From NCBI GenBank assembly GCA_000092065.1, contig CP000597.1: DNA of 64,000 bases. One strand, written 5' to 3'. The first letter of the stretch is position 1; each line of letters starts with the position of its first letter. Below the pieces are notes generated by a model. The model did no database searches, was not told where the DNA came from, and was given only the letters and a program-made list of their open reading frames with translations. This DNA is from Ostreococcus lucimarinus. Its lineage: Eukaryota. The position numbers and the translations under genes were made by a program. Positions 4,956-39,900 of the stretch are shown piece by piece.

Positions 4956-6086
4956 TCACGTTTGAATAACGATGACTTGCGGCTGTTGCGGCGTAACGGC
5001 GACGGGAGCGCCGCGGGTGGGGATGCCGAGGCGCGCGCGGAGCTTGTCGTCGGCGCGGCGGCGCGACCTGACGCAGAGCCCGATGAGAGTCAAGATGATG
5101 ACGAACGCAATACAACCGACGGCAATACCGGCGATTTCAACGTCGCTCAACGTATCCGCGGAGCGCAACGGAACGATGGTGCCCGGAACGCCGCCGCCAC
5201 CCGAGGAGCCACCCGCGGAGACTGACGTCGTCGTCGTGATGCCCAAAACCTGGACGGGAATATTCGAGCTTGTAGTAGCGTTGTTTCCGAGCTGACCTTT
5301 GTCATTGTAACCCCAGCACTGCACCGTGTCGCCGGCGAGCGTGGCGCAATTGAAGTCGTAACCCGCGGAGACTGACGTCGCCGTCGTGATGTTGGAAACC
5401 TGGACGGGAATATTCGAGCTTGTAGTAGTGCCGTCTCCGAGCTGACTATTGACATTGACACCCCAGCACTGCACCGTGCCGTCGGCGAGCATGGCGCAAT
5501 TGTGGCTGCCACCCGCGGAGACCGACGTCGCCGTCGTGATGCCCGAAACCAGGACAGGAGTAAGTCGGTTTGTCTTAGTGCCGTCTCCGAGCCGACCGTC
5601 GAGATTGTAACCCCAGCACTGCACCGTGCCGTCGGCGAGCATGGCGCACGTGTGGGCGCCACCCGTGGAGACCGACGTCGCCGTCGTGATGCCCGAAACC
5701 AGGACAGGAGTAGGTCGGTGTGTAGTAGTGCCGTCTCCGAGCTGACCTTTGTCATTGTAACCCCAGCACTGCACCGTGCCGTCGGCGAGCGTGGCGCACG
5801 TGTGGCCGCCACCCGCGGAGACTGACGTCGCCGTCGTGATGCCCGAAACCAGGACGGGAGTAAGTCGGTTTGTAGTAGTGCCGTCTCCGAGCTGACCGTT
5901 GGCATTGTAACCCCAGCTCTGCACCGTGCCGTCGGCGAGCAGGGCGCACGTGTGGCTGCCACTCATGGAGCCACCCGCGGAGACTGACGTCGCCGTCGTG
6001 ATGCCCGAAACCAGGACGGGAGTAAGTCGGTATATAGTAGTGCCGTCAGCGAGCTGACCGTCGCCATTGCTACCCCAGCACTGCAC
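4956..6086 (-). CDS. RCC1-repeat (beta-propeller) protein with a C-terminal transmembrane anchor. At least 6 RCC1-like repeats (WGxNxxGQLGDGTTT...HTCAxLADGTVQCWG).
   Basis: The repeat signature is typical of RCC1/HERC blades. The hydrophobic stretch IAGIAVGCIAFVIILTLIGLCV followed by RSRRR looks like a membrane anchor. The ORF begins at a GTG. The same frame continues upstream to an ATG at 6282-6284 and is interrupted only by an in-frame TAG at 6207-6209 (see findings). Confidence 0.7.
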   Translation of the reverse strand: MQCWGSNGDGQLADGTTIYRLTPVLVSGITTATSVSAGGSMSGSHTCALLADGTVQSWGYNANGQLGDGTTTNRLTPVLVSGITTATSVSAGGGHTCATLADGTVQCWGYNDKGQLGDGTTTHRPTPVLVSGITTATSVSTGGAHTCAMLADGTVQCWGYNLDGRLGDGTKTNRLTPVLVSGITTATSVSAGGSHNCAMLADGTVQCWGVNVNSQLGDGTTTSSNIPVQVSNITTATSVSAGYDFNCATLAGDTVQCWGYNDKGQLGNNATTSSNIPVQVLGITTTTSVSAGGSSGGGGVPGTIVPLRSADTLSDVEIAGIAVGCIAFVIILTLIGLCVRSRRRADDKLRARLGIPTRGAPVAVTPQQPQVIVIQT

Positions 6087-6803
6087 CGTGCCGTCGGCGA
6101 GCGTGGCGCACGCGTGGTCGCCGTGTCTCGCGGAGACCGACGTCGCCGTCGTGATGTTGACAACCTGGACGGCGGTATGTCGCTCAACCTTCGACCCGTC
6201 TCCGAGCTAACCGTTGTCATTGATACCCCAGCAATACACCGCGCCGCCGATCTCGACGCACATGCGAGAGTAACCGTTACCCATCGCGCGCGATTCGAAA
6301 ACCCTTCGATCGCCCGCTCGCCCGCGGCTCGTCCGCGCCGCGCGCGTCGCCCGTCGCGCACCGCCCGGGTCTCTCGCGCCGCGCGCGTCGCGATCGGTTC
6401 CTCTCGCACCGACGGTCGCGCGCGCGAGTCCGGCGACGGCGCGCGCGCGACGCGACGCGACGGCGAAAACTCAAAACCCAACGCGGGCGTCCGAGTCCGA
6501 GTCGACGCCCCGTCGACGCGTCGTGTCTGACGCGTAAAATGTTAGAAATCTGAAGAGTAAAATATGACGTATAGCTTTCCCTAGTTAACCTATAATTGTA
6601 ATCATCATCACTCATCGACGCACTAGGCCCGATTGCTCACGATCATATAAGGTATAGCTCGCAAAAACGGGCCTTTTCTGAAACTCGATTTTTGCTAGGG
6701 TTTAGCGACTCCGGTTTTCCGACGGAGGAATTGCGTGCGGGTAGTTCGCATCGTCGGTACTCGTCGACGCCACTCGTCGTTGCGCGAGTTGATCGATATA
6801 CTC

Positions 6804-7085
6804 ATGGGCGCGTGCTTCGGGCGATTCATGGGAGAGACCCAGGCGGAAGAATGGGAACGAAAGCAACGAAAGCTCGAGAAGAAACGAGCCAAGGATGAAC
6901 AGTGCAAACGGGACAACGAAATTTTAAAGGCTGTCTTCAAGGAGGAGGTTCGGGACCTCATCGGTGGCATTCCGGTGCTTCAAAACTTCATCGAGCGACG
7001 GTCGGGGCGAAAAATTACGGCTCGCACAAAAGATGAGAAGATGCGTGACCATGAGGCAGCGCAACGTATAGGGAAGCCCGTTTAA
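6804..7085 (+). CDS. Small hypothetical protein (93 aa from the first ATG) beginning MGACFG, then a charged coiled segment.
   Basis: The ORF sits in an AT-richer island and has lower GC3 than neighbours. The N-terminus fits an N-myristoylation (Gly2) and Cys4 palmitoylation pattern. No homology recognised. The track start at 6735 is a GTG. Confidence 0.25.
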   Translation: MGACFGRFMGETQAEEWERKQRKLEKKRAKDEQCKRDNEILKAVFKEEVRDLIGGIPVLQNFIERRSGRKITARTKDEKMRDHEAAQRIGKPV

Positions 7086-7328
7086 GGCCCGCGGCCTAAC
7101 TGACCGCCAGTAGCTCGCATAAAACGTGACGTGTGATCGCGCGGGGTCGGGTCGAATCCGACGACGCGACGCGCGCGCGAGGCTCGATCGCGCGATTTCT
7201 TCGAAAAAGCGCGCGTTCGGGCGAAAGCGTTCCCCATCGCCGCGCCCCGCGCGCGATAAAAAGAGCAGCATAGGGTTAGGGTTCGGCGACGCCGGCGATC
7301 CGACGATCGCGCGCCGCCGGGCGACGCA

Positions 7329-7352
7329 CGCGCGCGCGCGCGCGCGCGCGGC
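7329..7352. repeat. (CG)n dinucleotide run of about 11-12 units.
   Basis: Read directly as cgcgcgcg... It lies in the 3' flank of the FF-domain gene. Confidence 0.8.
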
Positions 7353-7861
7353 GTCGACGTCGGGCGCGCGCGGTCGAGGCGCGCGCGATCGGATCGCGAC
7401 GAGGTACGGGCGCGCGTGAAGGGACACCTTCGGTGACGCGAGCGTCGAATCGCGATCGCGAACACGCGCCGCGCGGGTCGACGTTCGTTCGACGCGCGCG
7501 GTGCGGCGGAAAATCGGACGACGCGCGACGACCACCGGGCGAAAATCCCCGGGCGCTGCGGCAGAGAGTGTCGGGTCGCGATGACCAGGACCTGGACGCG
7601 CTCGCGCGCGGGAAACCGCGAGCGGGACGTCGAGTAACTCGCCGAGGCACAGTCATGTGTCCACCGCGGAGACAACGCGGGAACTCAACGGGGTTTACTC
7701 TGAACGCTGACGCCCTCCCCAGTCGTGACGATGCGAACAGGACGCGCGAGAAAACGCGAGGGAACGCGCGAAACGCGGCGTTTGTGAACGCCCGCACTCG
7801 ACGAAAGAATTGTTTTTCGGCGAGAGGCAAACTAATTAACGCTCTAAACGCTTCGACGGAG

Positions 7862-8875
7862 CTACTCGGAGACGGCGCCGTCTTCGTCTTCGTCTTCGTC
7901 TTCGTCTTCGCCGTCTTCGACTCGATCGTCGCCGATTTTTACGCCGTGGCGCGATAAAATATCGATCGCGCACTCGGTCCATATTTGTTTTTTGTCGCCG
8001 TCGCTCACGAAGGCGAACAAGACGTCGTCGACGAGCTCGAACTCGTCCTCCGCGGCGCGCGCGTAGGCGAGCGCGCCGTCGAAGATGACGTCCAGCGCGC
8101 TCGCGCGTCTTCGAGCGCGAGCCTCGTTCGCGGCGGTTTCGTCGCTCAACTCTCTCACGACGAGCTTATCTATGATTCTACGCGCCAGTTTTTCAAATTC
8201 CGCCTTCAACGACGCCTCGACGGCGAGTCGATGCGCCTCGTACAGCGTCCTCGCGCGCGCCTCCCCTCCGCGCAATCTCGACACGTCGTCCCGACCCATG
8301 GGATCGCCCACCAAGTCCCGTCGAAACGCTTCGTCGTACGAACGCGCGTACGTCTTCACGCGTTCGGCGCACAACGCCTGAAACGCCGCCTCCGCCTCGT
8401 CGTCCAACAATCGCTCCTTCCGAAACCGCGCCTCGCGTTCATCCCTTCGCCGTCGTTCGCTCGCCTCCGACTCCCTCGCCCTCAACGCTCGCGCCCTCCG
8501 CGCGTCCGCGTCCGCCTCGTCTTCCCCCCGCGCCGCCCTTCGTCTCTTCTCCCCCTCCCTCTTCTCCTCCGCCGCGCGTCGCCGCAGCGCGTCGAACGCC
8601 GCGCGTCGCTCCGAGTGCGTCTTCAGCGCGCGAAACCGCGCGTCGCGCCGCATCTTCATCAGCGCGCGCTCCCAGCGCGCGTCCGCGAGTCCGTCGCCCA
8701 GCCGCGCGCGCACCATCGCCTCGAACGCCTCGACGTCCGCGCGCTTTTCCGTCGTCGCGCGTCGCCACTGCGCGTCGAAATTCGACGATTCGTCGTCGCG
8801 CGTCCCGTCGGTCGCGTCGTCGTCGTACGCGTCCGGGTCGAGGACGACGCCCGCGGCGTCGGCCGCCGTCGCCAT
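7862..8875 (-). CDS. FF-domain-containing protein, likely in the PRP40/TCERG1 family of transcription and splicing factors, with an acidic C-terminal tail (EDEDEDED).
   Basis: Two to three ~55-aa segments match the FF-domain pattern (aromatic...W...RF/RA...F), for example EAFEAMVRARL...WERALMKM...FRALKTHSERRAAFDAL and AEAAFQALCAERVKTYARSYDEAFRRDL. Start taken at the MATAAD ATG (8873-8875). The track start at 8932 is not an ATG-supported N-terminus. Confidence 0.5.
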   Translation of the reverse strand: MATAADAAGVVLDPDAYDDDATDGTRDDESSNFDAQWRRATTEKRADVEAFEAMVRARLGDGLADARWERALMKMRRDARFRALKTHSERRAAFDALRRRAAEEKREGEKRRRAARGEDEADADARRARALRARESEASERRRRDEREARFRKERLLDDEAEAAFQALCAERVKTYARSYDEAFRRDLVGDPMGRDDVSRLRGGEARARTLYEAHRLAVEASLKAEFEKLARRIIDKLVVRELSDETAANEARARRRASALDVIFDGALAYARAAEDEFELVDDVLFAFVSDGDKKQIWTECAIDILSRHGVKIGDDRVEDGEDEDEDEDEDGAVSE

Positions 8876-9071
8876 CGCCGCGGCGCGGAGTGGCGCGCGT
8901 CGCCGCCTCGTCACTGACACCCATACCCACACGTCCGAACACTCTCGATTTATTTATCGGCCCAACATCAAAAAAGCGTCGCTGGATCACGTACGCCGGT
9001 GCGCGCGAACGCGATGAAGGATTCAGGTCAACTCGCTTTTCCCGCGCGCGCGCACACGACGACGCGCGGCG

Positions 9072-11618
9072 ATGTCGCCGCCCGACGCGCGCGCGGGCGC
9101 GCGCCTGCGCGTCGCCACCATGTTCACCGGCGCCGGCGCGATCGACTACGGGTGCGTCGCGCGCGACGCGCGACGGCGCGACGGCGCGGGAAACGCGCGA
9201 AACGCAAAACCGAACGCCGAACGAACGCGAACGACGACGACGACGGATTCGACGCGCGACGACGACGACGACGACGCGCGACGACGCGAGATCGGGACGA
9301 CAAGGGGAGGATGGCGCGCGAAGACGCGAAGGCGCGCGCGACGGGAGCCCCGGGAGGACGAACGCGCGACTGACGAGACGCGAATTCGGGACGCGCGCGC
9401 GACCAGGCTGACGCGGGCGGGGCACGAGGTGACGCTGCAGTGCGAACGCGACGAGCGCGCGCGGGCGGTGCTGGACGCGCGATTTCAGGGCGTGCGACGG
9501 GCGAGGGAAGCGAGCGAGATCGAGGCGCTGCCGAGGGACGTGGACGTGCTGGTGTGCGGATTGATGACGAGGGAGTACGAGGGGTCGTGGCGAGAGTCGT
9601 GGACGAGAGACGGCGCGGCGGGGGCGCTGAAACACGCGCTGAGGCTGGGGGCGAGCGCGCGCGTGCCGTGGTTGGTGATCGAAGCGAGAGGGAAGATATT
9701 AGATCGTGGAGTCGATGGGAGCGAGGCGCCGTTGATTCATGAGTTTGTGAGCGAGCTGGAGCGAGCGGGGTACGCGTGGGCGCATCGCACGGTGGCGGCG
9801 GCGGCGTTCGGGGTGCCGGATGTCGCCGCGCGGGTGTTGCTCGTCGCCAGTAGATGCGGGGATCCGAGAGATGTGTTATTGACAGAAGACGCGGGGGCGT
9901 TGAAAGTCGATGCGAGGGATCCCGCGGATGAGCACACGTTTGTGTTTAATCGGCACCCCGAACGAGGGTTGTGCGCGTACGCCGACGTGTGCGAAGGATT
10001 TCATCCCGAGCCTGAGGCGTGCATGCTCACCGCCGCGGGTGGTTTGATGCCGCTCACCGTGCATGACGCTGAAAGATTGCAAGGATTGCCTCCGGGATGG
10101 ACGATGACGACGAGACCGAGCGTTCAAGGAAGTCAAGGGGAGGAGCTCACGGCGCGTTGGGACGCTTTGGCGAAGACGTACGGATGCGTCCCAAGTTCAT
10201 ATTGGCTGGGAACTCGGTTAGCGGACCCGTATGCTTTGAAATTTTCTGCCGATGCGGTTCCATTTAGAGAGTCTGTGCCGCACGCTTGGCCGGGGGCGGC
10301 GTACAACGTTGGACACGGGCGTGCGAGCGCCTTGTGCTCGCCGTTTGTCCGTGAAATCACGGAGTTGCCGTGTCTCGGCACGTTTATTTCCACGTCCTTT
10401 TTCGAAGGCGGTCCGCTGGTGCCGAAAGAGACCGCCGTGGCGTGCGCGCGCGTGCTTAGAGAGTCTGGCTGGGAGGTCCCTCCCCAGCTAGAGGCTTTGG
10501 AAAACGGCGAGGGAGAGATCGCCGTCGTCGAGCCGCGGGTGAAGAACGAACAGGCGCCTGCGGTCGAGCCACTGACGATAGCGACTCCGGCGGCACGGGC
10601 GCAGACCTCTCGCTACGATGAGTTTGTTTCAGCGCCACCGGCTTTGGTCGAACGCACGTTGCCTTTGATAAAGACGAAGAGCGGACATTTAATCGTCGAC
10701 CAAGACGAGGTGAAACGTTCGTCCAATTTTCCCATCGACATCGAGGCGAAGCGGTACAAGAGAAGCATCACGCCATCGTCGGCGGATATCGAGCCTGGAT
10801 CGCCAGGATCAACTCCGGGAACCATGACGTTCATCGCCGGCGTCGGTTTAGCTGCGCCAAGACGAAACCAGCTCGTTTGGGCCAAGCTCCCAGGTCATCC
10901 ATTTTGGCCGGGATTGCGAGCGGATTTGGACAAGGACTTCATCCCAGCGGATGCTCTCGCGATGGCGAGAGAAAACGAAGTACTCGTCGTGTTCTTTGGA
11001 GAAAATTCATTCGGTTGGCTGCGGGCGGAGCATTGCTTAGATTTTACCGAGCACTACGCATCGAAGAGTCGGGATCCGGCGAGGAACAAGGCGCGCTTCC
11101 AAGCGGCGGTGAAGCAAGCGAACGAGGAGCTGCAAATACGAGAGACGTTGCACGAGCGCGATAGATTACGTAAAATGGCGACGCAAAGTACTGCGCATAA
11201 GTTCCGTTCGCGCGGTGGCTCACCCATGCCCGAATTGAAGGGTTGTACGTGCAAGTCGTGCACGAGCATCTCCGCCGACGGTTCGGAATCGCCCAAGTGC
11301 ATACGTGTAGAAGCCGCCGAGAAGGCTAGTCGAGGTCACACAGGCGCCAAGCTTACGATTCAAGGTAGAACTATCATCGGTAAGCAAATTTTGGTGTTTT
11401 GGCCTCTCGACCGAGCGTCATATCCGGGTAAAATAGTCGATTACGATCCCGTCGAGCTTAGACATTGCGTCGAGTATGCCGAAGACGGCGTTAAAGAATT
11501 CTTGTCGCTGTGGAAGGAAGATGTAACATTACCGCCGGGTGAAAGACTCGGCCCGACTCTTCCAGAAGCAGATGAAGCTGGTGCTGATTTGTTGCTGGGA
11601 CTCACGGCGAGAGGATAA
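9072..11618 (+). CDS. Chromatin protein with an N-terminal DNA (cytosine-5) methyltransferase-like domain, a PWWP domain and a C-terminal Tudor/Agenet-like domain. The DNMT-like domain has non-canonical motifs.
   Basis: C5-MTase motifs I read in the translation: motif I MFTGAGAIDYG (FxGxG), motif IV region DVLVCGLMTREYEG (VCG replaces PCQ), motif VI PWLVIEARG (EAR replaces ENV), motif VIII AFGVPDVAARVLLVASR, and motif IX/X LTVHDAERLQGLPPGWT. PWWP: LVWAKLPGHPFWPGLRADL...VLVVFFGENSFGWL at ~10870-11030. Tudor-like: ILVFWPLDRASYPGKIVDYDP...EFLSLWKEDV at ~11385-11525. Confidence 0.7.
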   Translation: MSPPDARAGARLRVATMFTGAGAIDYGCVARDARRRDGAGNARNAKPNAERTRTTTTTDSTRDDDDDDARRREIGTTRGGWRAKTRRRARREPREDERATDETRIRDARATRLTRAGHEVTLQCERDERARAVLDARFQGVRRAREASEIEALPRDVDVLVCGLMTREYEGSWRESWTRDGAAGALKHALRLGASARVPWLVIEARGKILDRGVDGSEAPLIHEFVSELERAGYAWAHRTVAAAAFGVPDVAARVLLVASRCGDPRDVLLTEDAGALKVDARDPADEHTFVFNRHPERGLCAYADVCEGFHPEPEACMLTAAGGLMPLTVHDAERLQGLPPGWTMTTRPSVQGSQGEELTARWDALAKTYGCVPSSYWLGTRLADPYALKFSADAVPFRESVPHAWPGAAYNVGHGRASALCSPFVREITELPCLGTFISTSFFEGGPLVPKETAVACARVLRESGWEVPPQLEALENGEGEIAVVEPRVKNEQAPAVEPLTIATPAARAQTSRYDEFVSAPPALVERTLPLIKTKSGHLIVDQDEVKRSSNFPIDIEAKRYKRSITPSSADIEPGSPGSTPGTMTFIAGVGLAAPRRNQLVWAKLPGHPFWPGLRADLDKDFIPADALAMARENEVLVVFFGENSFGWLRAEHCLDFTEHYASKSRDPARNKARFQAAVKQANEELQIRETLHERDRLRKMATQSTAHKFRSRGGSPMPELKGCTCKSCTSISADGSESPKCIRVEAAEKASRGHTGAKLTIQGRTIIGKQILVFWPLDRASYPGKIVDYDPVELRHCVEYAEDGVKEFLSLWKEDVTLPPGERLGPTLPEADEAGADLLLGLTARG

Positions 11619-11702: not shown

Positions 11703-13058
11703 CTAAGCTGACGCGGATTCGAAGGTATCGTATATCGAGTCGCTCGATTCGACGTGCTTGAGCGTTTCGTTTACTGTTGTGAAGTGCTCGATTTCGTCGC
11801 TCTGATCGAACGCGGCTGCGCGTTTGACGGAGCTCTCGCTCAATTCAAATGTGTCCAATCGAGAAAGAAACGACGGTGACAAAGAGGTATCGTTCGTCGA
11901 TGGCGACACGATATCATCGGAGACGTGATTCAAGTACGATCGCGTCGCCTTCTGTACGTCCGCTGTGGCTCGCGTCACGCGATCCATGGCATCTATCATC
12001 ACTTTGGCCATCGCGCGACCCTCCTCCGTGGAGACGTCGACAGAGTTGAAAGCCACCATGTTCTCGGGCCTGAGAATCGATGCATTCATAATTTCAGCCA
12101 TATTCTTGCGCATGTCAATAAGCTCGTCTTCGTACTCGCGCGTCACTCGCATTCGCTCCTCGTGCTCAGCCACGAGCTGCTCGCTCAAGTCCCGAATCTT
12201 TGTCTCGTACAAGCGCGTTGACCTCGGCGATGTTGCGCCGCGAAGTCGCTCGATTTCCCTTGCCCGCTCCTCGCTAATCTCATTGATCTTCTCTAATTCC
12301 CATCGAAGTTCTGTAATAGTTTCCCAATCATCGATCGTCATCGTCGCCGGCCGCCCGTCGATCGGCTCGTTCGACTTGCGCTTCTGCTTGGTTTCTCTCG
12401 CGTTTGGCTCGCGCTTCTGCTCAATTTCACTCGCGCTCGCCAAACTCGCTCGACTCGCCTTTCTGCTCGATTTCTTCGCCGCCGTCTCCATCTCCCGTTG
12501 CGCTAGTCGCACCGCGCGCGCGCGCGTCTCCTCGCTCTGACAATACGCCACCGCCCCGGGTCCCAACTTTCTCGCAAACGAAATCGCCGTCGCCGCGCCG
12601 CTCGCCGCATTCGCTCGCACTTCGCACGTCCAATACATCACCGCCAACGCATCAAACGTCGCCTGAAACTCCCCTCGCTCGACACCATCGACCGATATCG
12701 CATTTGCCGGCACCCGCTCTCTCGCTAAAATCCCTCGCAGCGTCTGAAACGGGTGTTTCATCGCCGCGGCGCCGCCGCGCGTCGACGCGCTCGTCCCCGC
12801 TCGCGACGTCCCCGTCAACGCCTCGAACGATTCCGGCCACGCGCGCGCGGCGCACGCCAACGCTCCGACACTACGTTTTAGATCACTCCACACCAGCGCG
12901 CTCGTATCGCTCTCGCCCCCACGCGTCGCGCGCACGGCGTCGACGCTTCGCCGCGCGAACTCGAGCAGTTCAGATTTCCCAACCTCAATCCCCGTCTCCG
13001 TCGTCCGCGCGCGCGTCGACGCGCTGTTCGACGCGCCGTTCGATGCGACGTCGCGCAT
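11703..13058 (-). CDS. Hypothetical 451-aa protein with a central charged coiled-coil region.
   Basis: Uninterrupted ORF with an ATG at 13056-13058. Codon bias matches neighbours. It sits divergent to the megaenzyme gene with a 217-bp spacer. No family recognised. Confidence 0.5.
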   Translation of the reverse strand: MRDVASNGASNSASTRARTTETGIEVGKSELLEFARRSVDAVRATRGGESDTSALVWSDLKRSVGALACAARAWPESFEALTGTSRAGTSASTRGGAAAMKHPFQTLRGILARERVPANAISVDGVERGEFQATFDALAVMYWTCEVRANAASGAATAISFARKLGPGAVAYCQSEETRARAVRLAQREMETAAKKSSRKASRASLASASEIEQKREPNARETKQKRKSNEPIDGRPATMTIDDWETITELRWELEKINEISEERAREIERLRGATSPRSTRLYETKIRDLSEQLVAEHEERMRVTREYEDELIDMRKNMAEIMNASILRPENMVAFNSVDVSTEEGRAMAKVMIDAMDRVTRATADVQKATRSYLNHVSDDIVSPSTNDTSLSPSFLSRLDTFELSESSVKRAAAFDQSDEIEHFTTVNETLKHVESSDSIYDTFESASA

Positions 13059-13275: not shown

Positions 13276-16200
13276 ATGGAGTACGTCGACGCGTCAACGC
13301 TGCGAAAACTGTCGACGTCGGGTGACATCATCATCGTCGACGCGAGCTGGGCGATCGCGAACGACGTCGAGCGCGCGCGCGCGGCGCACGAGAGCGAGCG
13401 CATCCCGAACGCGACGTTTTATGATCACGACGAGGTGTGCGACCTGTCGTCGCCGCTGCCGCAGGCGTTCCCGCCGCGGGAAGCGTTCGCGCGAGGCGTC
13501 GGCGGCGGACTCGGGGCGACGAAGACGCGAGACGTGGCGATATACGCGAAAAACGGCGCGTCTTGCGCGGCGGAGGCGTGTGCGTTCGCGTTCTTGGAAT
13601 ATGGACATCGAGGACGGGTGATGGTGCTCAAGGGAGGGATGGAGGCGTGGAAGGCGGAAGGCTACGAGACGGAGGTCGGGGCGGAGACGATGCGCGAGCG
13701 GGCGACGGTGGAGTACGACGAAGACGGATCGAACGGAACGCGCGAGGGGAAGAAATCGGGATTCGTCGACGCGAAAGATTTGTTGACGAACTTGAGCACG
13801 CAGCGGTTGCAAGTGCTGGATTGCCGACAGTCGGAGGTGTTCGCGGGAGGGGCGAGAGACGCGGCGTACGTTCGGATTCAGGATCGAGCGATTCAGTTCG
13901 AGGGCTTCCGCGAAGGGCACATTCCGGGGGCGAAGAATTTACCGTACACGCGGTTGTTCGACGTCGCGGACGAAAACTTGCGAGAAATATTCGAGGGCGC
14001 GGGGTTGGACCTGTCCATGCCCGTGGCCGTGGTCGGTTCGGGGGGCGTCGACGCGGCGCCGATGGTGGCGTCAGCGCTCACGCGCGCCGGGTGCGCCGAC
14101 GCCGTGGTGCTAAAGAACGGTATGTGTGCGTGGTGCACGGCGCAAGGGAGCTCGTATCCGATGTCCATCGCTAGCACTTCTCCGCACGCTTCGCACAACG
14201 AAAAGCGCCTGATCGTTTGGGCGGTGACTCGATCGCGCGGCACCGCGCTCGAACGCTCGTTCTCTATGCACTCCGAGGCGATGGTCATGCACGAGTTACT
14301 CACGGAGCCGTGCTTGAAGGAGAATAATCCGGAAAATTACGCCAAGATTGTCAGTGGACAATCTGAACATCATGTCGCGAGCAGTGGATGCAGCTATGCG
14401 ACGATGTTAGAGGTGATGACGGCGGATTACTCCGCGCAAGGACGTCCATTCTTCTTCTCCAAAGAGCTGTCGTGTTACTTTGACTTGAAGCAAATGAAGT
14501 CGAGCTGGTTAAAACGGTTCACGCACGTGGTGTTGATTCGACAACCGACGGAAACGATAGAGTCATTTTATCGCGTCTCCATTGAACACAAGGAAGGGAG
14601 CTGCTATTATGATCCATCTGAGGCTGGATTTGCGGAAGCTTTTGGTATCGTAAACGCGTTGAAGCGTATCAATGCCAAGGTTATGGTCGTCGACGCTGAC
14701 GCGGATTTGCTGTCGCGACCAGAGGAGACGCTCCAAGAGATGTGTTCGCTGGCAAACGTGAACTTTGAGAGTTCGATGTTGTCATGGAAGCCCGCAGAGT
14801 TGTCAACGTGGATCAAATTTCGCGGTTGGCACGACGATGCGGCGAGATCGAGCGAGTTCAAAGCTGTCGACAAGGCACCGATGCAAAACGTACCGCCGGA
14901 ACTCTGCGTCGATGCGGCGAAGCAACAACCGTATTACGACGCCATAGGGTGGGAGCGCAAAGAAACTTCCAAGCGTTGGCCGTTCTTACGCCAGCTCACG
15001 AATCCGACGCATCGGTTCTCCGTCGTCGTGTGCGCATCGGATGAAGGCGCTATGGATATGTTCCCTCGTCTTGCCGCCGCGCGTCTGAGCGGCGTCAACT
15101 TGTACGAGTTCAAGCCGAGCGAAGTTGATCAGGCGATGAATAAATGCCCGTATATTTTCGACGACCCGATCGTTCTAGTGGGCGCACACGGACCCACGCT
15201 GCACATGGCCGAGGCACTGCGCGAGCGTGCGCAGAAGGACGGAACTTTGTGCATCGTACGCATAGTTCTCGTCGACGCTTCGGCGCATCGCGTTCGACCC
15301 GAAGGATTCGAGCACAGCTGGGTCCCAGAAGATTCGCTCAAGGATCAAACCAGCATGGACGAAGTTTTACAGAGTATTTTAGTCGACATCGAAACGGCAC
15401 AAAGCAAAAGTGCGAAGGAGATGGCGGATGTGAACGCGTTAGCCTCGACGACGACGTCGGCGGCGACGCACTGGCGCTCGGGTTTGGCGACGGCGTTGCA
15501 AGACGCTCGCTCCGACAAACCTTGCGTTACAGATGCGACGAGTACGTACACGATGAAAGAAGTGTACTCGCGTGCGTATCACGTCGCAGATATGCTCACC
15601 GAACGCGGTGCGCTGAACTCTCGTGTGGGTTTGTTTGTGCAAGCCTCCGCGGCGTCGGTGTGGTGCGCCATGGGTTCACTCTTGTGTGAATCTGTGTTTT
15701 GCGAAATCCCCGCGTGGTATCGCGACACCGACCTCGAACGCGTGTTGCGTTTGAACGAGTCGAAAGTCATAATAACTTCTCGTGATCTCGTGCAGTTCGT
15801 ACCCACCGCGTACAGAGACTTGGTCGTGGTCGTCGAGGACATGGAGTACGACGTCGACTTGAGCGGCGAGCTTCATCCGGCGCTGACGCGTCCTGACACT
15901 CCCGATGCCCCCGGGTTCTCCGTACTCACCAGTGGCACTACTGGTGTGAGTAAAATTCTGTGCTGTCCACAATCCGCGCTGACGGACTCGCAATCGGTCA
16001 TTGGGCCACACATGCGTGGCGACGATGTCATGGGGAGCTTTTGGGTCTATTATTACTTCTTCATTCCGCTCCTCGCTGGTCGCACGCTGAGCGTCATCCC
16101 GAACGATTTCTTCCTCAAGCCCCGAGAGTTGATTTCGTATGTGCGAAGTCAAAAAATGACCATGCTTTACCTCAGTCCGAGTATCCTGGAGAGCTGTTTG

Positions 16201-19200
16201 TTGCACTGCACGCCGCAAGAGTTCTCCGAAGGGATGCAAGACGTGCACACAATTTTATTGACCGGTGAACGCGTGCGAAGAGAGACTCGTATGCTTCTCG
16301 CCGAGCGTCTCACCCGTACGCGTTTGATTGACGTGTACAGCACGAACGAAACGGGTGATTTGGCGATATCTGATTACGGTGGAGCGTTCTTCCTGCGTGA
16401 GGGCACGCAAGCGCGCGTGTTGACGGATGACGGCAAGCCAGCTGTTCGCGGCACCGTCGGCCAGCTTCACGTTAAAAAGAGTGGTTTGCTCGTTGGCTTC
16501 TACACGGATAACGGTTACGCGAAGATCGAAAGCGAGTGGTATCCAACTGGCGATCTCGTTCGTTGGTTAGGTCGCAACAGGTTGACTTTTGAATCTCGTC
16601 AAAAGTCGGCATACGTCAAGATTCGTGGCTTCAAGGTTTCGCCGGTCATGGTACAAGACGTCATGCTCAAGATGCCAGTGATTAAACAGGCCATCGTGAG
16701 CACGATCGGACAGTCTGACATTGACCAGCAACTCGTCGCTGCTATCTCCTTCAACAACGGTGCGCGAGCGAAGGAGAGCGAATTGCGGGCACACATGGCA
16801 GCGCACGTGCCGCACTACATGATTCCGTCGACGTTTTACGACCTCGGCAACAAAGTGTCCACAGCTACCTCTGGTAAAGTGGTCAAGCTTGATGTCGATA
16901 GGCTGGACAAAATCACCGATAGTAACGAAGTGCAACTGACTACAAAGCAAAATGAGGTCGTGGAGGTGTGGCGCCAAGTGTTAGATCAACCGGAGAAGAA
17001 CTTCGCGGCGACGGAGAGCTTTTTCGACTACGGCGGAAGCTTGAAATTTGTTGAGCTTGCGGCGGCACTTTCGAAGAAATGGGGGGTGAGTTTGACGGTT
17101 CCCGAAGTCATCGCCAAGCCGACGCTGGCTGAGATGGCCCTACTTATGGAAGATTATAAAAACGCCAAGTTTGAGCCCGAGGTCGAAGTCGCAAAGTATG
17201 ACTTTTCCGAGTTCAAGCGAGCGCCAAAGAAGAATACTGCGGCGGGCAAGAAGAATATTCTCCTTACCGGCGCTACTGGTTTTCTTGGTGCGTACTTGCT
17301 TCAAGAACTCGCCGCAAGCGATGAAATTGATCAGATTTACGCTATCGTGCGCGCAAAAGACAAGTTTGCGGCGCAAAATCGCGTGCTCGATGTCTTCCGT
17401 AAGCGCGGGCTCACGTTTACCGATCAAATAACGCAAAAGACAACGTTCATGTGTGGTGACATGTCAATGCCGTTGTACGACATACCCGAAGCCACGCTCG
17501 CGCCAGTTTTGGAAGTGATTGACGTTGTCATCAGCGGTGGCGCGGAAGTCAATATGGTGAAGTCTTATTCAGCGTTAGAAAAGGTAAACGTCGGAGGAAC
17601 GTTCAACGGGCTCGAGATCGCGTCGCGCGCCGGCGCTAGACACGTTCTCATTTCCACGCAGTATCCGCTTCCGGGTGAAGTTTCAACGGGATACCGACGA
17701 AGTAAAGAGGTCGCGGAGATGCTATGCGAGCGCGCGCAGAAAGAAGTTGGCGTTGAGTCGGCCGTTTTATTGTTTGGTGACATCGGTATTTCTCGTGCCG
17801 TCGGTTCGCTCGCGCCCGACGATGACTACATCGTCATCTTCCTCCGCGCCTGCCTCGCGACAGGTTTCTTCCCACGTACCGAGTGGGCTGTTAGTATCTT
17901 GTGCGTCGATGATTGCGTGAAGATGCTCACGTCAATCTCATTATCCGGCCAAGTCGATCGTTATGCGTTTGACGGCGTCGCGCGTGAAGTAAAGGGTAAA
18001 CTGATGCCGTTTTCTCAACTTTACGAATGGCTCTCCAAGGAGTACGCGTTGCAGCTGTGCAGCTACGATGGCTGGCTCAATGCAGTTAAGGCTGGCGCCG
18101 CCGAAGGCAACACGATCCTTCAGCGCGCGCTCCTGACGATTGATTCCATGGAAGTCGAACTCAGAGCGGAGGGTGAGCACTTCAACTCGCAGGCGGCGTC
18201 AGATGCGCTCTTCTCCGTGGACGAAGCGTGGGGTAAGAACCTCGTCGGTGCGCTAATTCTCGAACTCTACAGCGAACTTCAAAATGACGACAAAGACACC
18301 ACCATCGGCTTCGCCGCGTTGGCGCAAGGCGAAGATTTGGTTCCGTTCAAGTATCGCCTCCCAGACATGACCCCGACGTCTGTCGAGGTGAAGGTCGAGT
18401 ACTGCGGCTTGTGCGGAAGTGATGATCACTTGATCGTGGGTGACTATGGTGAATATGCGGTGTGGCCGCAAGTTTGCGGACACGAAGTCGTGGGTACGGT
18501 CACCCAAGTTGGCACGGCGGTGACGACGCTAAAAGCCGGTCAACGCGTTGGCGTCGGCTGGCAGAGCTCGTCTTGCCACGATTGCGAGTGGTGCGCGCGA
18601 GGCGATGAGCAGCTGTGCTCTAGTGTCGGTTGTACATGCTGCGAAGGTAACAAAGGTGGTTTCGCCGATCGCATGCGCTTAAACGACTCGCAATTCTGCT
18701 ACAAAATCCCAGACGCGCTGTCTTCCGCGGAAGTCGCGCCGTTGCTATGCGGTGGCCAAACCGTTTGGACGCCTTTGAACGAGCAAACGAAGTCTAGCGA
18801 TCGCGTCGGCATTCTCGGCCTCGGTGGACTCGGTCACATGGCCATCAAGTTCGCCAAGGCGCTCGGTCGAGAAGTCACCGCGATTTCGTCTTCGGCGTCG
18901 AAGCGCGCCGACGCCCTGTCGCACGGCGCGTCGCGCTTTTTGGTGCACACCAACCAAGAAGAGATGGATGCCGCCGCCTCATCGCTCGACTTCATCCTAG
19001 TCACCATCGCCACGAATAAAGAGGTGGACTTCGCGAAGTTTTTCCCCTTGTTACGCCCGCGTGGGACGATTTGTTTCGTCGGCATGTGCCCTCCCATCCA
19101 AGCCGACGTCTTCACTCTCGGCTTCACCATGAACAACATCACAACGAGTAACACCGGGGGCAAAAAGGACATGGTTCAAATGCTCGAATTCTGCGCCCGA

Positions 19201-19374
19201 CACAAGATCGGCGCCTCCGTCGCCGTGAGTCCGCTCAGCGAGATCAACACCGCCATCACGGCTTTGCGCACGGGCGAATCCCACTTCCGACACGTCCTCG
19301 TCAACGACGTCTCGAGCGGTAGTCAACACCGTCGCATGGCCAGCGCCTTCGGCAGCGGCTTCCCTTCCCGTTAA
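13276..19374 (+). CDS. Multidomain megaenzyme (2032 aa): rhodanese, rhodanese, sulfotransferase-like, AMP-dependent adenylation, phosphopantetheine carrier, NAD(P)-dependent thioester reductase, and a Zn-dependent MDR alcohol dehydrogenase.
   Basis: Rhodanese 1 (~13276-13680): IIIVDASW...ERIPNATFYD. Rhodanese 2 (~13780-14150): VLDCRQSEVF...GHIPGAKNLP. Sulfotransferase-like (~14210-15300): IVWAVTRSRGT. A-domain core motifs: LTSGTTGVSK (~15927-15950), YSTNETGD, YPTGDL, KIRGFKV. Carrier: FFDYGGSL (~17020-17040). Reductase: LLTGATGFLGAYL (~17263-17300). ADH: CGLCGSD, GHEVVG (~18478-18500), GLGGLGHMAIKFAKALG. One uninterrupted ORF with an ATG at 13276. Confidence 0.85.
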   Translation: MEYVDASTLRKLSTSGDIIIVDASWAIANDVERARAAHESERIPNATFYDHDEVCDLSSPLPQAFPPREAFARGVGGGLGATKTRDVAIYAKNGASCAAEACAFAFLEYGHRGRVMVLKGGMEAWKAEGYETEVGAETMRERATVEYDEDGSNGTREGKKSGFVDAKDLLTNLSTQRLQVLDCRQSEVFAGGARDAAYVRIQDRAIQFEGFREGHIPGAKNLPYTRLFDVADENLREIFEGAGLDLSMPVAVVGSGGVDAAPMVASALTRAGCADAVVLKNGMCAWCTAQGSSYPMSIASTSPHASHNEKRLIVWAVTRSRGTALERSFSMHSEAMVMHELLTEPCLKENNPENYAKIVSGQSEHHVASSGCSYATMLEVMTADYSAQGRPFFFSKELSCYFDLKQMKSSWLKRFTHVVLIRQPTETIESFYRVSIEHKEGSCYYDPSEAGFAEAFGIVNALKRINAKVMVVDADADLLSRPEETLQEMCSLANVNFESSMLSWKPAELSTWIKFRGWHDDAARSSEFKAVDKAPMQNVPPELCVDAAKQQPYYDAIGWERKETSKRWPFLRQLTNPTHRFSVVVCASDEGAMDMFPRLAAARLSGVNLYEFKPSEVDQAMNKCPYIFDDPIVLVGAHGPTLHMAEALRERAQKDGTLCIVRIVLVDASAHRVRPEGFEHSWVPEDSLKDQTSMDEVLQSILVDIETAQSKSAKEMADVNALASTTTSAATHWRSGLATALQDARSDKPCVTDATSTYTMKEVYSRAYHVADMLTERGALNSRVGLFVQASAASVWCAMGSLLCESVFCEIPAWYRDTDLERVLRLNESKVIITSRDLVQFVPTAYRDLVVVVEDMEYDVDLSGELHPALTRPDTPDAPGFSVLTSGTTGVSKILCCPQSALTDSQSVIGPHMRGDDVMGSFWVYYYFFIPLLAGRTLSVIPNDFFLKPRELISYVRSQKMTMLYLSPSILESCLLHCTPQEFSEGMQDVHTILLTGERVRRETRMLLAERLTRTRLIDVYSTNETGDLAISDYGGAFFLREGTQARVLTDDGKPAVRGTVGQLHVKKSGLLVGFYTDNGYAKIESEWYPTGDLVRWLGRNRLTFESRQKSAYVKIRGFKVSPVMVQDVMLKMPVIKQAIVSTIGQSDIDQQLVAAISFNNGARAKESELRAHMAAHVPHYMIPSTFYDLGNKVSTATSGKVVKLDVDRLDKITDSNEVQLTTKQNEVVEVWRQVLDQPEKNFAATESFFDYGGSLKFVELAAALSKKWGVSLTVPEVIAKPTLAEMALLMEDYKNAKFEPEVEVAKYDFSEFKRAPKKNTAAGKKNILLTGATGFLGAYLLQELAASDEIDQIYAIVRAKDKFAAQNRVLDVFRKRGLTFTDQITQKTTFMCGDMSMPLYDIPEATLAPVLEVIDVVISGGAEVNMVKSYSALEKVNVGGTFNGLEIASRAGARHVLISTQYPLPGEVSTGYRRSKEVAEMLCERAQKEVGVESAVLLFGDIGISRAVGSLAPDDDYIVIFLRACLATGFFPRTEWAVSILCVDDCVKMLTSISLSGQVDRYAFDGVAREVKGKLMPFSQLYEWLSKEYALQLCSYDGWLNAVKAGAAEGNTILQRALLTIDSMEVELRAEGEHFNSQAASDALFSVDEAWGKNLVGALILELYSELQNDDKDTTIGFAALAQGEDLVPFKYRLPDMTPTSVEVKVEYCGLCGSDDHLIVGDYGEYAVWPQVCGHEVVGTVTQVGTAVTTLKAGQRVGVGWQSSSCHDCEWCARGDEQLCSSVGCTCCEGNKGGFADRMRLNDSQFCYKIPDALSSAEVAPLLCGGQTVWTPLNEQTKSSDRVGILGLGGLGHMAIKFAKALGREVTAISSSASKRADALSHGASRFLVHTNQEEMDAAASSLDFILVTIATNKEVDFAKFFPLLRPRGTICFVGMCPPIQADVFTLGFTMNNITTSNTGGKKDMVQMLEFCARHKIGASVAVSPLSEINTAITALRTGESHFRHVLVNDVSSGSQHRRMASAFGSGFPSR

Positions 19375-36950: not shown

Positions 36951-39900
36951 ATGCGGCTCGACGACGGCGACGACGCGCGACGAAGGGACGCGCGCGCGGT
37001 TCGAGCGCGCGCGACGCGGACGCCGACGCGCGCGGCGACCACGCGCGGCGATGTCGTCGACGCCGCTGCCGCCGATGATGACATCGACGACGACGCCGTC
37101 GCGCGACCGGACGCGACGCGACGACGACGACGCGACGACGACGCGACGACGACGACGCGCGATGATGAGACGACGCGCGCGCGAGAGGGCGCGAGCGGAC
37201 GCCGGCGAGCGCGGGAACGAGGGAGAGCGACGAGGCGTCGTCGACGGCTCGGGACGGCGGCGGCGGCGGCGGCGACGGCGGCGTTGGCGGCGACGGTCGA
37301 GCGCGTCGGCGTGGACGCGTCGACGGCGCTCACGAAGGGGGTGGCGAGGAATGGTTTCGTGTCGTCGAGCGGGTATAAGTACTATAAGGTGAATGTGGCG
37401 TGCGTGGAGGCGGCGCAGCCGCTGACGTTGGAGCTGACGACGAGCAACGGGGACGCGAACTTGTACGTGTCTCGATCGGCGCAGCCGACGACTTCGTCGT
37501 ACGAACAGCGGAGCGTGAACGTTGGAAATGCGTTGGATTCGGTGACGATCACGAGTCCGGTGAATGGGTACTATTACGTGAGCGTGTACGGCGCGCTGTC
37601 CAGCACGTACAAGCTTCGAGCGCTCACGACGATGTTTACCGGGAAACATCCGTGCACGGGATTTCGAATCACCGATAGCGACGTCTCGAGCGTTGGCTCG
37701 GGATCTGGAAATCAGTTCATACTGCAAGAAGCGCTCACCGCGAGCGCGGCGGCGGGATTCACCGCGGATGTGTCCGTCGACGGCGACGTCATCCTCGGCG
37801 ACGCGTACACCGATTCGGTGACGGCGAAAGGAGAGCTCAAGCTCGGCGTGACGGACAGTACGTACTACGCCATCACGCGACAATCGCCGAGCGCACCGAG
37901 CAGCAACCCGGGCGGCGCTTTGTCGATCGTCGGCGCGAACGCGACCTATCAGGGGGGATCGGTAAAGATTCTCGGCGGAACGGGCGGTTCGGGGGCGGGC
38001 GGCGACGTCGTGATCGAGGCGGGGTCGGCGTCTGGCGGCAACGGTGGCGATTTGAAGTTACGTGGCGGCACGTCGAACTCAGGAACGGGCGGCGACGTCG
38101 TCATAGATGCCGGAGATAGCACGACACAAGCATCTTCGTACGAGGGCATCATTCACATAGGTCCAACTTCTGCGTCGTTTGTGCGCGTCGGCGAGAGTTC
38201 AAATAAGCAAGTTCAAACCGATATTTTCGGCGACTTGACGGTGCACGGAAATCTCTTGACAACGAATGATGTGGTGTACGCGAACAGCTACACGAGTTAC
38301 GTGCAGGTTTCAACCTCTCAAGACGGCATGTTTCATCAAGAAGTGCGCGCGCCAAAGATTACAGGTCTGGACGCGGAGGACATCACGGGCACTCCAACGA
38401 GCACGTTGACTTTAGACGCTGGCATGCGAGGGAGTCAGCAACACGTCGTGATCGCTCCGAGCGAGGCAACGGCGGTTTACATAGGTAGCAGCACATCCAC
38501 GATTCCGGTCTCGATAAGGCAAGGCGCGAACGCAGGAGACGTGCGAGTGCACGCTGATGGCAGCGGCGCGCTGTCCGTGACTTCGGCCGCAGGGCAGGAC
38601 CTGACGCTCGCGTCCGGCGACGACGTGGTGGTGACCACCGCGGCGAGTAAGACGCTCGCGCTGAAGCAGGACTCGACGAGCATTTTGAGCTGGGACGCGG
38701 CCGGCGCTGTGACTGTGAACTCCGTGAGCGGGCAGGACCTGACGCTGAGCACGGGCGGTAGCGCGGCCGTGACTGTGGACTCGACCGGGCAGGTGGGCAT
38801 CGGGACGACGACGCCGGGGAAGACGCTGGACGTCACCGGGACGGCGCGCGTGAGTGGCGCGACGACGCTGAGTAGCACGCTTGACGTGACTGGCGCTACG
38901 ACGCTCGCATCCGTGGGCGTGACCGGTGCGGCCACCGTCGGCGGGACTTTAGGTGTGACTGGCGCTACGACGCTCGCATCCGTGGGCGTGACCGGCGCGG
39001 CCACCGTCGGCGGGACTTTAGGTGTGACTGGCGCTACGACGCTCGCATCCGTGGGCGTGACCGGCGCGGCCACCGTCGGCACGACGCTCGGCGTGACTGG
39101 CGCTACGACGCTCACCGGCGACGTGACGATGAGCAACGACTTGACCGTGAGCGGTGCGCTTACTGTGACATCTGATGCCGCTGTGAGTTTGACCTCTGCA
39201 AGTGGTTCGGACGTGAGCTTGACGAGCGCCGGTACGGGTGGCATCGTGTTGACGTCGACGGACGACATCACGCTCGATGCTGCCGATGATGTGACGATCG
39301 ATGCCGCCGGTGCTTTGTCTTTGGAGCAGGGCGGGACGAGTATTTTGAGCTGGACCGACACCGGCGCTGTGACTTTGAACTCCTTAGGCGGGCAGACCCT
39401 GAGCGTGTCGAGCCTCAGCTCGGCCGGGAACGCGGGCGCCGTGAGCGTGTCCGGCGGCACGACGACTGGGACGTCCTCGAACACCGGCGGCGACTTGACG
39501 CTGCAATCTGGCGGCGCGCCCGCTGGCAGCGTGAACGGTGACGTTCTGGTGGACTCGGCCACTGGTCTAGGCACCGCCGGCTCGATCACGCTTCGCCAGG
39601 GGGTGGGCGGTGAGCGTGTTTCTGTGGACGCGAACGGCGCCGTGAGTCTGGACACGCACTCCGGGCAGGACCTGACGCTGAGCACGGGCGGTAGCGCGGC
39701 CGTGACTGTGGACTCGACCGGGCAGGTGGGCATCGGGACGACGACGCCGGGGAAGACGCTGGACGTCACCGGGACGGCGCGCGTGAGTGGCGCGACGACG
39801 CTGAGTAGCACGCTTGGCGTGACTGGCGCTACGACGCTCGCATCCGTGGGCGTGACCGGTGCGGCCACCGTCGGCGGGACTTTAGGTGTGACTGGCGCTA

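Follow-up and report, generated by a model that had tools for sequence, protein, structure and literature searches.

DNMT3L, a non-catalytic partner of the mammalian DNA methyltransferases (DNMTs) DNMT3A/B, carries an ADD and no PWWP domain and has lost the motifs for binding S-adenosylmethionine (SAM) as well. In Ostreococcus and Micromonas the dense CG methylation is attributed to DNMT5, a maintenance enzyme where tested. For plants, Arabidopsis DRM3 is a catalytically mutated paralogue that is required for DRM2 function (PMC2965745). In 2012 putative DNMTs of the green alga O. tauri were reported to carry a C-terminal PWWP, in convergence with animal DNMT3 (PMC3457860); the clade was named 'Chlorophyta DNMT6-like' in 2023, with O. 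lucimarinus XP_001422099 among the proteins listed (Funabiki et al., PMC10538959), and was renamed 'ChloroDNMT' in 2025, when the convergence with DNMT3 was noted again (Sarre et al., PMC12344493). The family is named and uncharacterised, and surveys count every member of it as a DNMT. Here we consider a single open reading frame (ORF) on the plus strand at 9072-11618 of a 64,000-nucleotide stretch of O. lucimarinus DNA (contig CP000597.1; the whole stretch is the window below), which matches XP_001422099, and for which an original prediction from the letters alone had proposed a DNMT-like domain with substituted catalytic motifs followed by PWWP and Tudor-like domains.

We favour the view, with a probability of about 0.6, that the protein is a catalytically dead, reader-targeted DNMT paralogue that would act as a non-catalytic, chromatin-bound subunit working with an active paralogue, in the manner of DNMT3L or DRM3. 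It has the shape of a methyltransferase (MTase) without the catalytic residues, it carries two reader domains and an intact sister is present in the genome, and so a non-catalytic helper or chromatin reader is most likely. That it is not a cytosine-5 methyltransferase (C5-MTase) is, judged from the motifs, very probable, and that it works with the active paralogue is a tentative proposal by analogy to which we give somewhat less than an even chance. Family and architecture are already known, and what looks new is a conserved pseudoenzyme subclade paired with an active sister; no description of the dead subclade, of its lost catalytic residues or of a dead/active pair was found in the literature searched on ChloroDNMT and inactive Ostreococcus DNMTs. 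Hoguin et al. (2023) do not treat the ChloroDNMT family, and no link by sequence was made between the window gene and the 2012 accessions XP_003084095 and XP_003079195.

The fold predicted for the N-terminal 390 amino acids is that of a C5-MTase, and on the modelling and the profile comparisons this is not in doubt. A family profile built from 13 N-terminal domains (an Ostreococcus/Micromonas-type alignment) aligns over its positions 7-171 to residues 12-172 of M.HhaI (E=4e-4), and in an exhaustive search it found 4155 library proteins at E<=1e-3, mostly canonical C5-MTases, with GxPC and ENV in most of the best 143 of these 4155 matches. Modelling by AF2 was of the corresponding domain of a 74%-identical O. 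mediterraneus orthologue (P0130) and not of the window protein itself, and with a 77-sequence alignment gave a predicted local distance difference score (pLDDT) of 89.8 and a predicted template-modelling score (pTM) of 0.91; a run with the 13-sequence alignment was discarded at a pLDDT of 47.6. The top Foldseek matches of the model were all C5-MTases at a probability of 1.00 (M.HaeIII, DNMT2, M.HhaI, MET1, DNMT1, DNMT5, DIM2 and DNMT3B). The motifs run in the linear order I, IV, VI, VIII, IX, X, and so the recognisable C5-MTase motif order of the original prediction is borne out by the M.HhaI profile alignment, the motif alignment, AF2 and Foldseek alike.

Within this fold the catalytic motifs are degenerate when set against M.HhaI, presumed bacterial MTases and active algal paralogues. 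FxGxG of motif I is kept, the acidic residue of motif II is an invariant Glu and the acidic residue of motif III is usually kept; of the SAM-binding set FTGAG and the motif II Glu remain and motif X reads G-C-V; the equivalents of the M.HhaI SAM contacts P80, I61 and N304/S305 are altered. The proposed replacement of PCQ by VCG proves to be out of register, with the VCG Cys four residues upstream of the catalytic position and unconserved (orthologues have VAS, AAS, VVG or VIS there), and with M-T-R at the true PCQ position. The motif IV Pro-Cys position is occupied in orthologues by VS, MD, MS or MA, with no Cys in any. The replacement of ENV by EAR was read correctly. Of the two features that had been named as speaking against a DNMT-like domain, a VCG Cys off the catalytic position is what is found, and an absence of motifs VI and VIII is not, both being present in degenerate form. 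The former catalytic loop carries the sequence G-S-W-R-E-S-W, invariant in the 13-sequence alignment, of which W-R-E-S-W is also present in Bathycoccus; a census of the profile matches confines WRESW to the subclade that we call dead. A Cys4 cluster in the target-recognition region, present in active algal paralogues, is absent from the window subclade. The catalytic losses are common to the Ostreococcus, Micromonas and Bathycoccus orthologues, the subclade having EAx for ENV, DxxxR for QxRxR and GCV for GNAV, and PF00145 scores the dead members at 31-44 bits versus 106-113 bits for the active paralogues. The Bathycoccus dead orthologue (P0293, CAL6438946.1) has in addition 21 amino acids inserted where the catalytic loop used to be, and its motif VI reads D-C-G where the others have E-A-x; this accession is not among the two Bathycoccus 'DNMT6-like' accessions of the 2023 survey.

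Active-type members of the family keep GFPC, ENV, xRRxR and GNAV, and have the order MTase, WPxAA(Y/W) extension, PWWP, CxxCxxC...C and Tudor (for example P0152, P0154 from Trebouxia, P0155/P0325, P0157 from Cymbomonas, P0159 and P0160). For one more protein of this type, P0029, the missing N-terminal exons were found in contig L001, supplying FSGIGG and GFPC. The C-terminal half of the window protein is collinear with the active paralogues (BLASTP E=5e-21 against P0160 and 3e-16 against P0325). O. lucimarinus itself has an active paralogue, XP_001417930, that reads VAGFPCNDCS; O. mediterraneus pairs the dead A0A7S0KK65 with the active A0A7S0KJG8, and M. pusilla the dead XP_003064391 with the active-type XP_003056440 (GFPC). 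The active O. mediterraneus entry carries MMETSP transcript identifiers, and its dead counterpart, a UniProt entry, is taken to be transcriptome-derived.

All 100 neighbour-joining bootstraps recover the dead clade as monophyletic, on a long branch on which the midpoint root fell; the test for a 'dead+active' clade was ill-posed, as some unlabelled sequences in it were algal. In the published maximum-likelihood tree XP_001422099 groups with M. pusilla XP_003064391 (99.7/100), and the two are sister to the active chlorophyte clade (96.2/97). Our sister placement of the dead clade is taken from that tree together with the shared C-terminal architecture.

Conservation of the MTase-like domain is on a par with that of the readers. 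Compared to O. tauri, 77% of its residues are identical, with 76% in PWWP, 88% in Tudor and 45% in the linker; compared to M. pusilla the values are 53%, 60%, 51% and 22% respectively. Over the N-terminal region the dead proteins of O. lucimarinus and O. mediterraneus are 71% identical, and their active counterparts 77.5%. The 13-sequence alignment holds 107 invariant columns, and the gene order with a downstream 451/475-aa gene and a multidomain gene of about 2030 aa is conserved. The sequence comparisons show a gene that is maintained under purifying selection, and not a relic.

The MTase fold is followed by PWWP, a Cys cluster and Tudor, and the predicted arrangement of an N-terminal MTase with PWWP and then Tudor C-terminal to it holds, by Pfam for the former reader and by phmmer for the latter. 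At 50 bits the PWWP of the dead paralogue is a stronger match than the PWWPs of the active members, which score 17-29 bits; in the former a putative aromatic cage reads H, W and F by comparison with DNMT3A and BRPF1. The Cys cluster is a possible zinc knuckle. For the Tudor (amino acids 764-814) the nearest solved structure is that of Arabidopsis RDM15/PDS5C, an H3K4me1 reader with an aromatic cage of W-Y-Y plus two Asp, of which D645 is needed for mono-methyl specificity (PDB 7DE9; PMC8184781). The window protein keeps the equivalents of the W616, Y623 and Y641 cage and of D643, and differs in having Val for D645 and a one-residue insertion; its pocket reads Y-A-E-D-G-V versus Y-D-D-G-D-V in the active paralogues.

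The ORF is real, running from ATG to stop over 848 codons, and the locus is probably a two-exon gene, that of O. lucimarinus XP_001422099. What had been taken for a low-complexity insert of about 130 amino acids between motifs I and IV is not protein, and is instead an in-frame intron with borders G/GTGCGT at 9152 and CAG/G ending at 9406. When 21 homologues are aligned, those whose N-terminus is intact have ...FSGCGVLDYGLTQAGHEI... uninterrupted, where the window ORF has 85 Arg/Asp/Thr-rich residues between DYG and LTRAGHE; removal of the intron gives ...AIDYG/LTRAGHE..., as in all relatives, and a product of 763 aa. Both O. mediterraneus A0A7S0KK65 (762 aa) and the curated O. tauri model XP_022840525.1 (765 aa) read DYGLTQAGHE. 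A near-identical TARA contig shows seven differences from the window in 2.8 kb, six of them within 9152-9406 and including a frameshifting 1-nt deletion, and its sole exonic difference is at a third codon position. In L006, an O. mediterraneus-like contig, the same phase-2 site is also occupied by an intron, which at 238 nt is not a multiple of three and is therefore out of frame. Searched with an active paralogue by tblastn, the locus gives one collinear match, 9408-11531, that starts just past the intron, and splicing raises the PF00145 score from 17 to 35 bits (E=1.3e-8; cut-off 22). For the unspliced 848-aa ORF the NCBIfam dcm match is below threshold too, and both sub-threshold matches of the raw ORF mislead because the intron is still included.

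The same error appears to have entered the public record. In the visible part of the row 'XP_001422099_Ostreococcus_113-298' of the eLife 2023 supplementary alignment about 89 residues are identical to the window protein, and the residue numbering of the row is that of the unspliced ORF, in which the first exon-2 residue is 113; the RefSeq model XP_001422099 therefore appears to be the unspliced 848-aa ORF, with the intron read as coding and 85 spurious residues. Translation of the intron splits motif I from the rest of the domain and takes the domain score below threshold. The unspliced 848-aa product gave no match when looked up exactly. By gene callers run on metagenomes the dead-paralogue gene has been assigned at least five different N-termini (P0001, P0032-P0045). 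That our gene model and family placement are right we hold to be highly probable.

Table 1. Features of the dead ChloroDNMT-family gene, in window coordinates.
Feature	Position	Strand	Evidence or remark
Exon 1, start codon and motif I strand (MSPPDARAGARLRVATMFTGAGAIDYG)	9072..9151	+	Ends in phase 2 within a Gly codon; N-terminus like 'RLKVASLFSGCGVLDYG' of relatives
C5-methyltransferase-like domain, intron-interrupted, with C-terminal extension of about 90 aa	9105..10499	+	PF00145 35 bits spliced; M.HhaI profile; AF2/Foldseek
Motif I, F-T-G-A-G	9123..9137	+	Alignment; FxGxG kept
Intron, 255 nt (85 codons), in frame, stop-free	9152..9406	+	GTGCGT start, CTGAC branch-point-like at 9370, CAG end
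Exon 2, stop codon included	9407..11618	+	ORF and splice analysis
V-C-G, formerly read as the PCQ equivalent	9552..9560	+	Aligns with M.HhaI C76-A77-G78
M-T-R at the true motif IV P-C-Q position	9564..9572	+	No catalytic Cys
E-G-S-W-R-E-S-W, dead-subclade signature in the former catalytic loop	9579..9602	+	Alignment
Motif VI, E-A-R instead of E-N-V	9681..9689	+	Alignment; Glu kept
Motif VIII, D-V-A-A-R instead of Q-x-R-x-R	9819..9833	+	Alignment; last Arg alone kept
Motif IX-like, HDAERLQGLPPGWT	10062..10103	+	Alignment (IX-X region 10062..10193)
Motif X, G-C-V-P	10182..10193	+	Invariant Cys replaces Asn of GNAV
Hallmark of the C-terminal extension, WPGAAYNVGHGR	10287..10322	+	Shared with active algal paralogues and with stand-alone MTases of about 375-420 aa, presumed bacterial
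PWWP (GHPFWPG ... FFGENSFGW)	10869..11132 (ORF aa 600-687)	+	PF00855 E=2.9e-13, 50.6 bits against a cut-off of 25.6
Cys cluster, G-C-T-C-K-S-C ... K-C	11241..11306	+	Collinear with CxxCxxC...C of active paralogues
Tudor, RDM15/PDS5C type	11361..11513 (ORF aa 764-814)	+	phmmer against PDB 7DE9, E=2.6e-6

Several points weigh against a protein that is both dead and a helper of the active enzyme. The motif VI Glu and the last Arg of motif VIII, which in M.HhaI contact the flipped cytosine, are kept here and are invariant in the Ostreococcus/Micromonas-type sequences, with Asp for Glu in Bathycoccus; motif I and the motif II Glu are retained, and an invariant Cys stands in place of the motif X Asn. 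With this Glu, this Arg and motifs I and II in place, the protein may still bind a ligand or a base, or carry out an unusual chemistry. The transcript evidence is from O. mediterraneus and not from the window strain, the neighbour-joining tree leaves the dead clade as sister of either the active algal clade or the presumed bacterial group, and the parallel with DNMT3L and DRM3 is reasoning by precedent. An enzyme that is still active, through non-canonical residues or on another atom or substrate that needs no Cys nucleophile, would sit well with the strong purifying selection on the whole fold and with the kept FxGxG, motif II Glu and usually acidic motif III residue; a nucleophile might be sought in the motif X Cys, as RNA 5-methylcytosine (m5C) methyltransferases take their catalytic Cys from a different motif. 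However motif X of M.HhaI lies on the SAM side and does not face C6, and on this geometry the motif X Cys was judged unlikely as an alternative nucleophile. Further, the catalytic loop and its surroundings are free of Cys in every orthologue, the position being taken by T, S, D or A, and with the Cys have gone the Pro that precedes it, Asn-Val from ENV, Gln and the first Arg from QxRxR and the motif X Asn; several SAM contacts of M.HhaI (the P80 and N304/S305 equivalents) are changed, and the Bathycoccus loop insertion and D-C-G go the same way. Retained methyltransferase activity is on this evidence improbable, and so is the divergent active de novo methyltransferase that the original prediction had entertained. 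Its other option, a catalytically dead DNMT-derived chromatin reader, fits a constrained fold with four degenerate motifs and no catalytic Cys in any orthologue.

Less easily set aside is a chromatin reader or scaffold that stands alone, with no link to the active paralogue, and whose former MTase domain binds DNA, a flipped or modified base, SAM or S-adenosylhomocysteine (SAH) as a metabolic sensor, or some other protein. The more canonical PWWP, the invariance of the GSWRESW loop, the kept Glu and Arg, whose M.HhaI counterparts hold the flipped cytosine, a Tudor pocket unlike that of the active paralogues and the missing target-recognition Cys4 cluster would all suit such a protein; but the pairing of one dead with one active member is seen in O. 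lucimarinus, O. mediterraneus and M. pusilla alike, and DNMT3L and DRM3 are precedents that favour a link, and we regard a role without the paralogue as rather unlikely. GC-rich DNA gives many spurious long ORFs on both strands, and the intron itself is open by chance, which could suggest a decaying pseudogene or an annotation artefact, a chance long ORF. On the sequence comparisons this is effectively refuted, as Ostreococcus clades, Micromonas and Bathycoccus all have orthologues with intact ORFs, A0A7S0KK65 agrees with the spliced product, the domains are conserved and the linkers are not, the single exonic difference from the near-identical strain is at a third codon position, and synteny is conserved.

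The subclade to which the protein belongs spans the Mamiellales, and in it the C5-MTase fold is preserved and the cytosine-5 methylation chemistry is lost. If the protein is indeed a catalytically dead, reader-targeted paralogue, PWWP and Tudor would dock on nucleosomes marked by methyl-lysine, and the MTase-like domain with its new GSWRESW loop would bind DNA and/or the active paralogue, and so recruit, stimulate or restrain the active enzyme, in parallel to DNMT3L with DNMT3A and to DRM3 with DRM2. In a more far-reaching version, argued by analogy and doubtful, de novo methylation in the Mamiellales would be the work of a two-component module, in which an obligate dead paralogue recognises histone marks through PWWP and Tudor and places the active ChloroDNMT or switches it on. 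With such a module the logic of DNMT3A-DNMT3L and DRM2-DRM3 would have arisen a third time independently, and the module would feed the DNMT5-maintained nucleosome-linker methylation of the tiny Mamiellales genomes. In a variant of this version the dead domain may be a base-flipping reader of cytosine or 5-methylcytosine by way of the retained Glu and Arg. Should one Mamiellales copy be a conserved pseudoenzyme, the count of active enzymes changes, the protein becomes a candidate targeting or regulatory subunit, and another DNA methyltransferase would have evolved a dead partner independently.

Some further features of the family and of the locus were observed. The extension of about 90 aa after motif X (10230-10499; WPxAA(Y/W)NxGxGR ... 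PL..F ... helix) is conserved from stand-alone MTases of about 375-420 aa (presumed bacterial; P0167, P0177 and P0179) to the algal proteins, is missing from M.HhaI, and is confidently modelled by AF2 as three short strands plus helices. The target-recognition region of the active ChloroDNMTs has a CxxC...CxxC cluster just after DPRDVLL (P0325, P0152, P0154, P0157, P0159, P0160 and P0029) that may be a zinc-binding insertion, and the presumed bacterial relatives and the dead subclade are without it. On L001, a GC-rich, Micromonas-like metagenome contig, a zf-4CXXC_R1 (CDCA7-type) gene at 1548-2810 lies about 2.5 kb upstream of the active ChloroDNMT (about 5364-8970); CDCA7 has been tied to DNA-methylation maintenance (PMC10538959).

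The 9072-11618 ORF is flanked by two minus-strand genes, at 7862-8932, with a weak FF-domain match, and at 11703-13058. Immediately downstream, 13276-19374 on the plus strand encodes a 2032-aa protein in a single ORF, for which precomputed Pfam matches are Rhodanese, Sulfotransfer_5, AMP-binding, PP-binding, NAD_binding_4/Epimerase, ADH_N and ADH_zinc_N, an architecture of a nonribosomal peptide synthetase (NRPS)-like carboxylate reductase with unusual sulfur-related N-terminal domains; the gene is syntenic in L006 (2046 aa). Very long ORFs of 3364 aa and 1858 aa occupy a high-GC stretch at 36951-47045 (+) and 47164-52740 (-), and are overlapped by long antisense ORFs such as 38477-45142 (-) of 2221 aa, and so spurious ORFs readily stay open here.

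In relation to the described DNMT classes, membership of DNMT5 was rejected, the protein having no SNF2 or helicase Pfam match, in keeping with the predicted unlikeness to that enzyme. DNMT1 was considered and rejected also; it had been supposed known from Mamiellales, a lineage which lacks it (PMC10538959). The domain order was correctly said to be the reverse of that of animal DNMT3, a point already published (PMC3457860, PMC12344493). Membership of the animal-type DNMT3/DRM group was excluded, the readers being C-terminal, an ADD match being absent and published trees placing the class apart. With animal DNMT3A/B (PWWP-ADD-MTase) the protein shares a PWWP reader joined to a C5-MTase fold, and differs from these catalytically active enzymes in the reversed order, in lacking an ADD match and in phylogenetic origin. 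The stand-alone C5-MTases P0167, P0177 and P0179, which carry DPRDVLL and WPxAAWNxGxGR, match the family profile from position 1 to 350, the extension after motif X included (E about 1e-39 to 1e-41); in contrast to the window protein they have fully canonical PCQ, ENV, QRRxR and GNAV, and no reader domains.

Closest of all are the active ChloroDNMT members (XP_001417930, A0A7S0KJG8, DBA65791.1 from Trebouxia and KAK3261200.1 from Cymbomonas), with the same collinear architecture and in the same published clade; compared to these the window subclade has lost GFPC, ENV, xRRxR, GNAV and the target-recognition CxxC...CxxC, has gained GSWRESW, and has a stronger PWWP, an altered Tudor pocket and a lower PF00145 score. 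The likeness to DNMT3L is in an MTase-like fold with lost catalytic residues, a histone-reader module and the presence of active paralogues, whereas the clade is unrelated and of independent origin, and the window protein retains motifs I and II and has its readers at the C-terminal end. DRM3, conserved, catalytically mutated and sharing its accessory domains with an active sister, is the closest conceptual precedent in the green lineage, although DRM proteins belong to the DNMT3 clade and have circularly permuted motifs and UBA domains, in contrast to the linear motif order and the PWWP and Tudor of the window protein.

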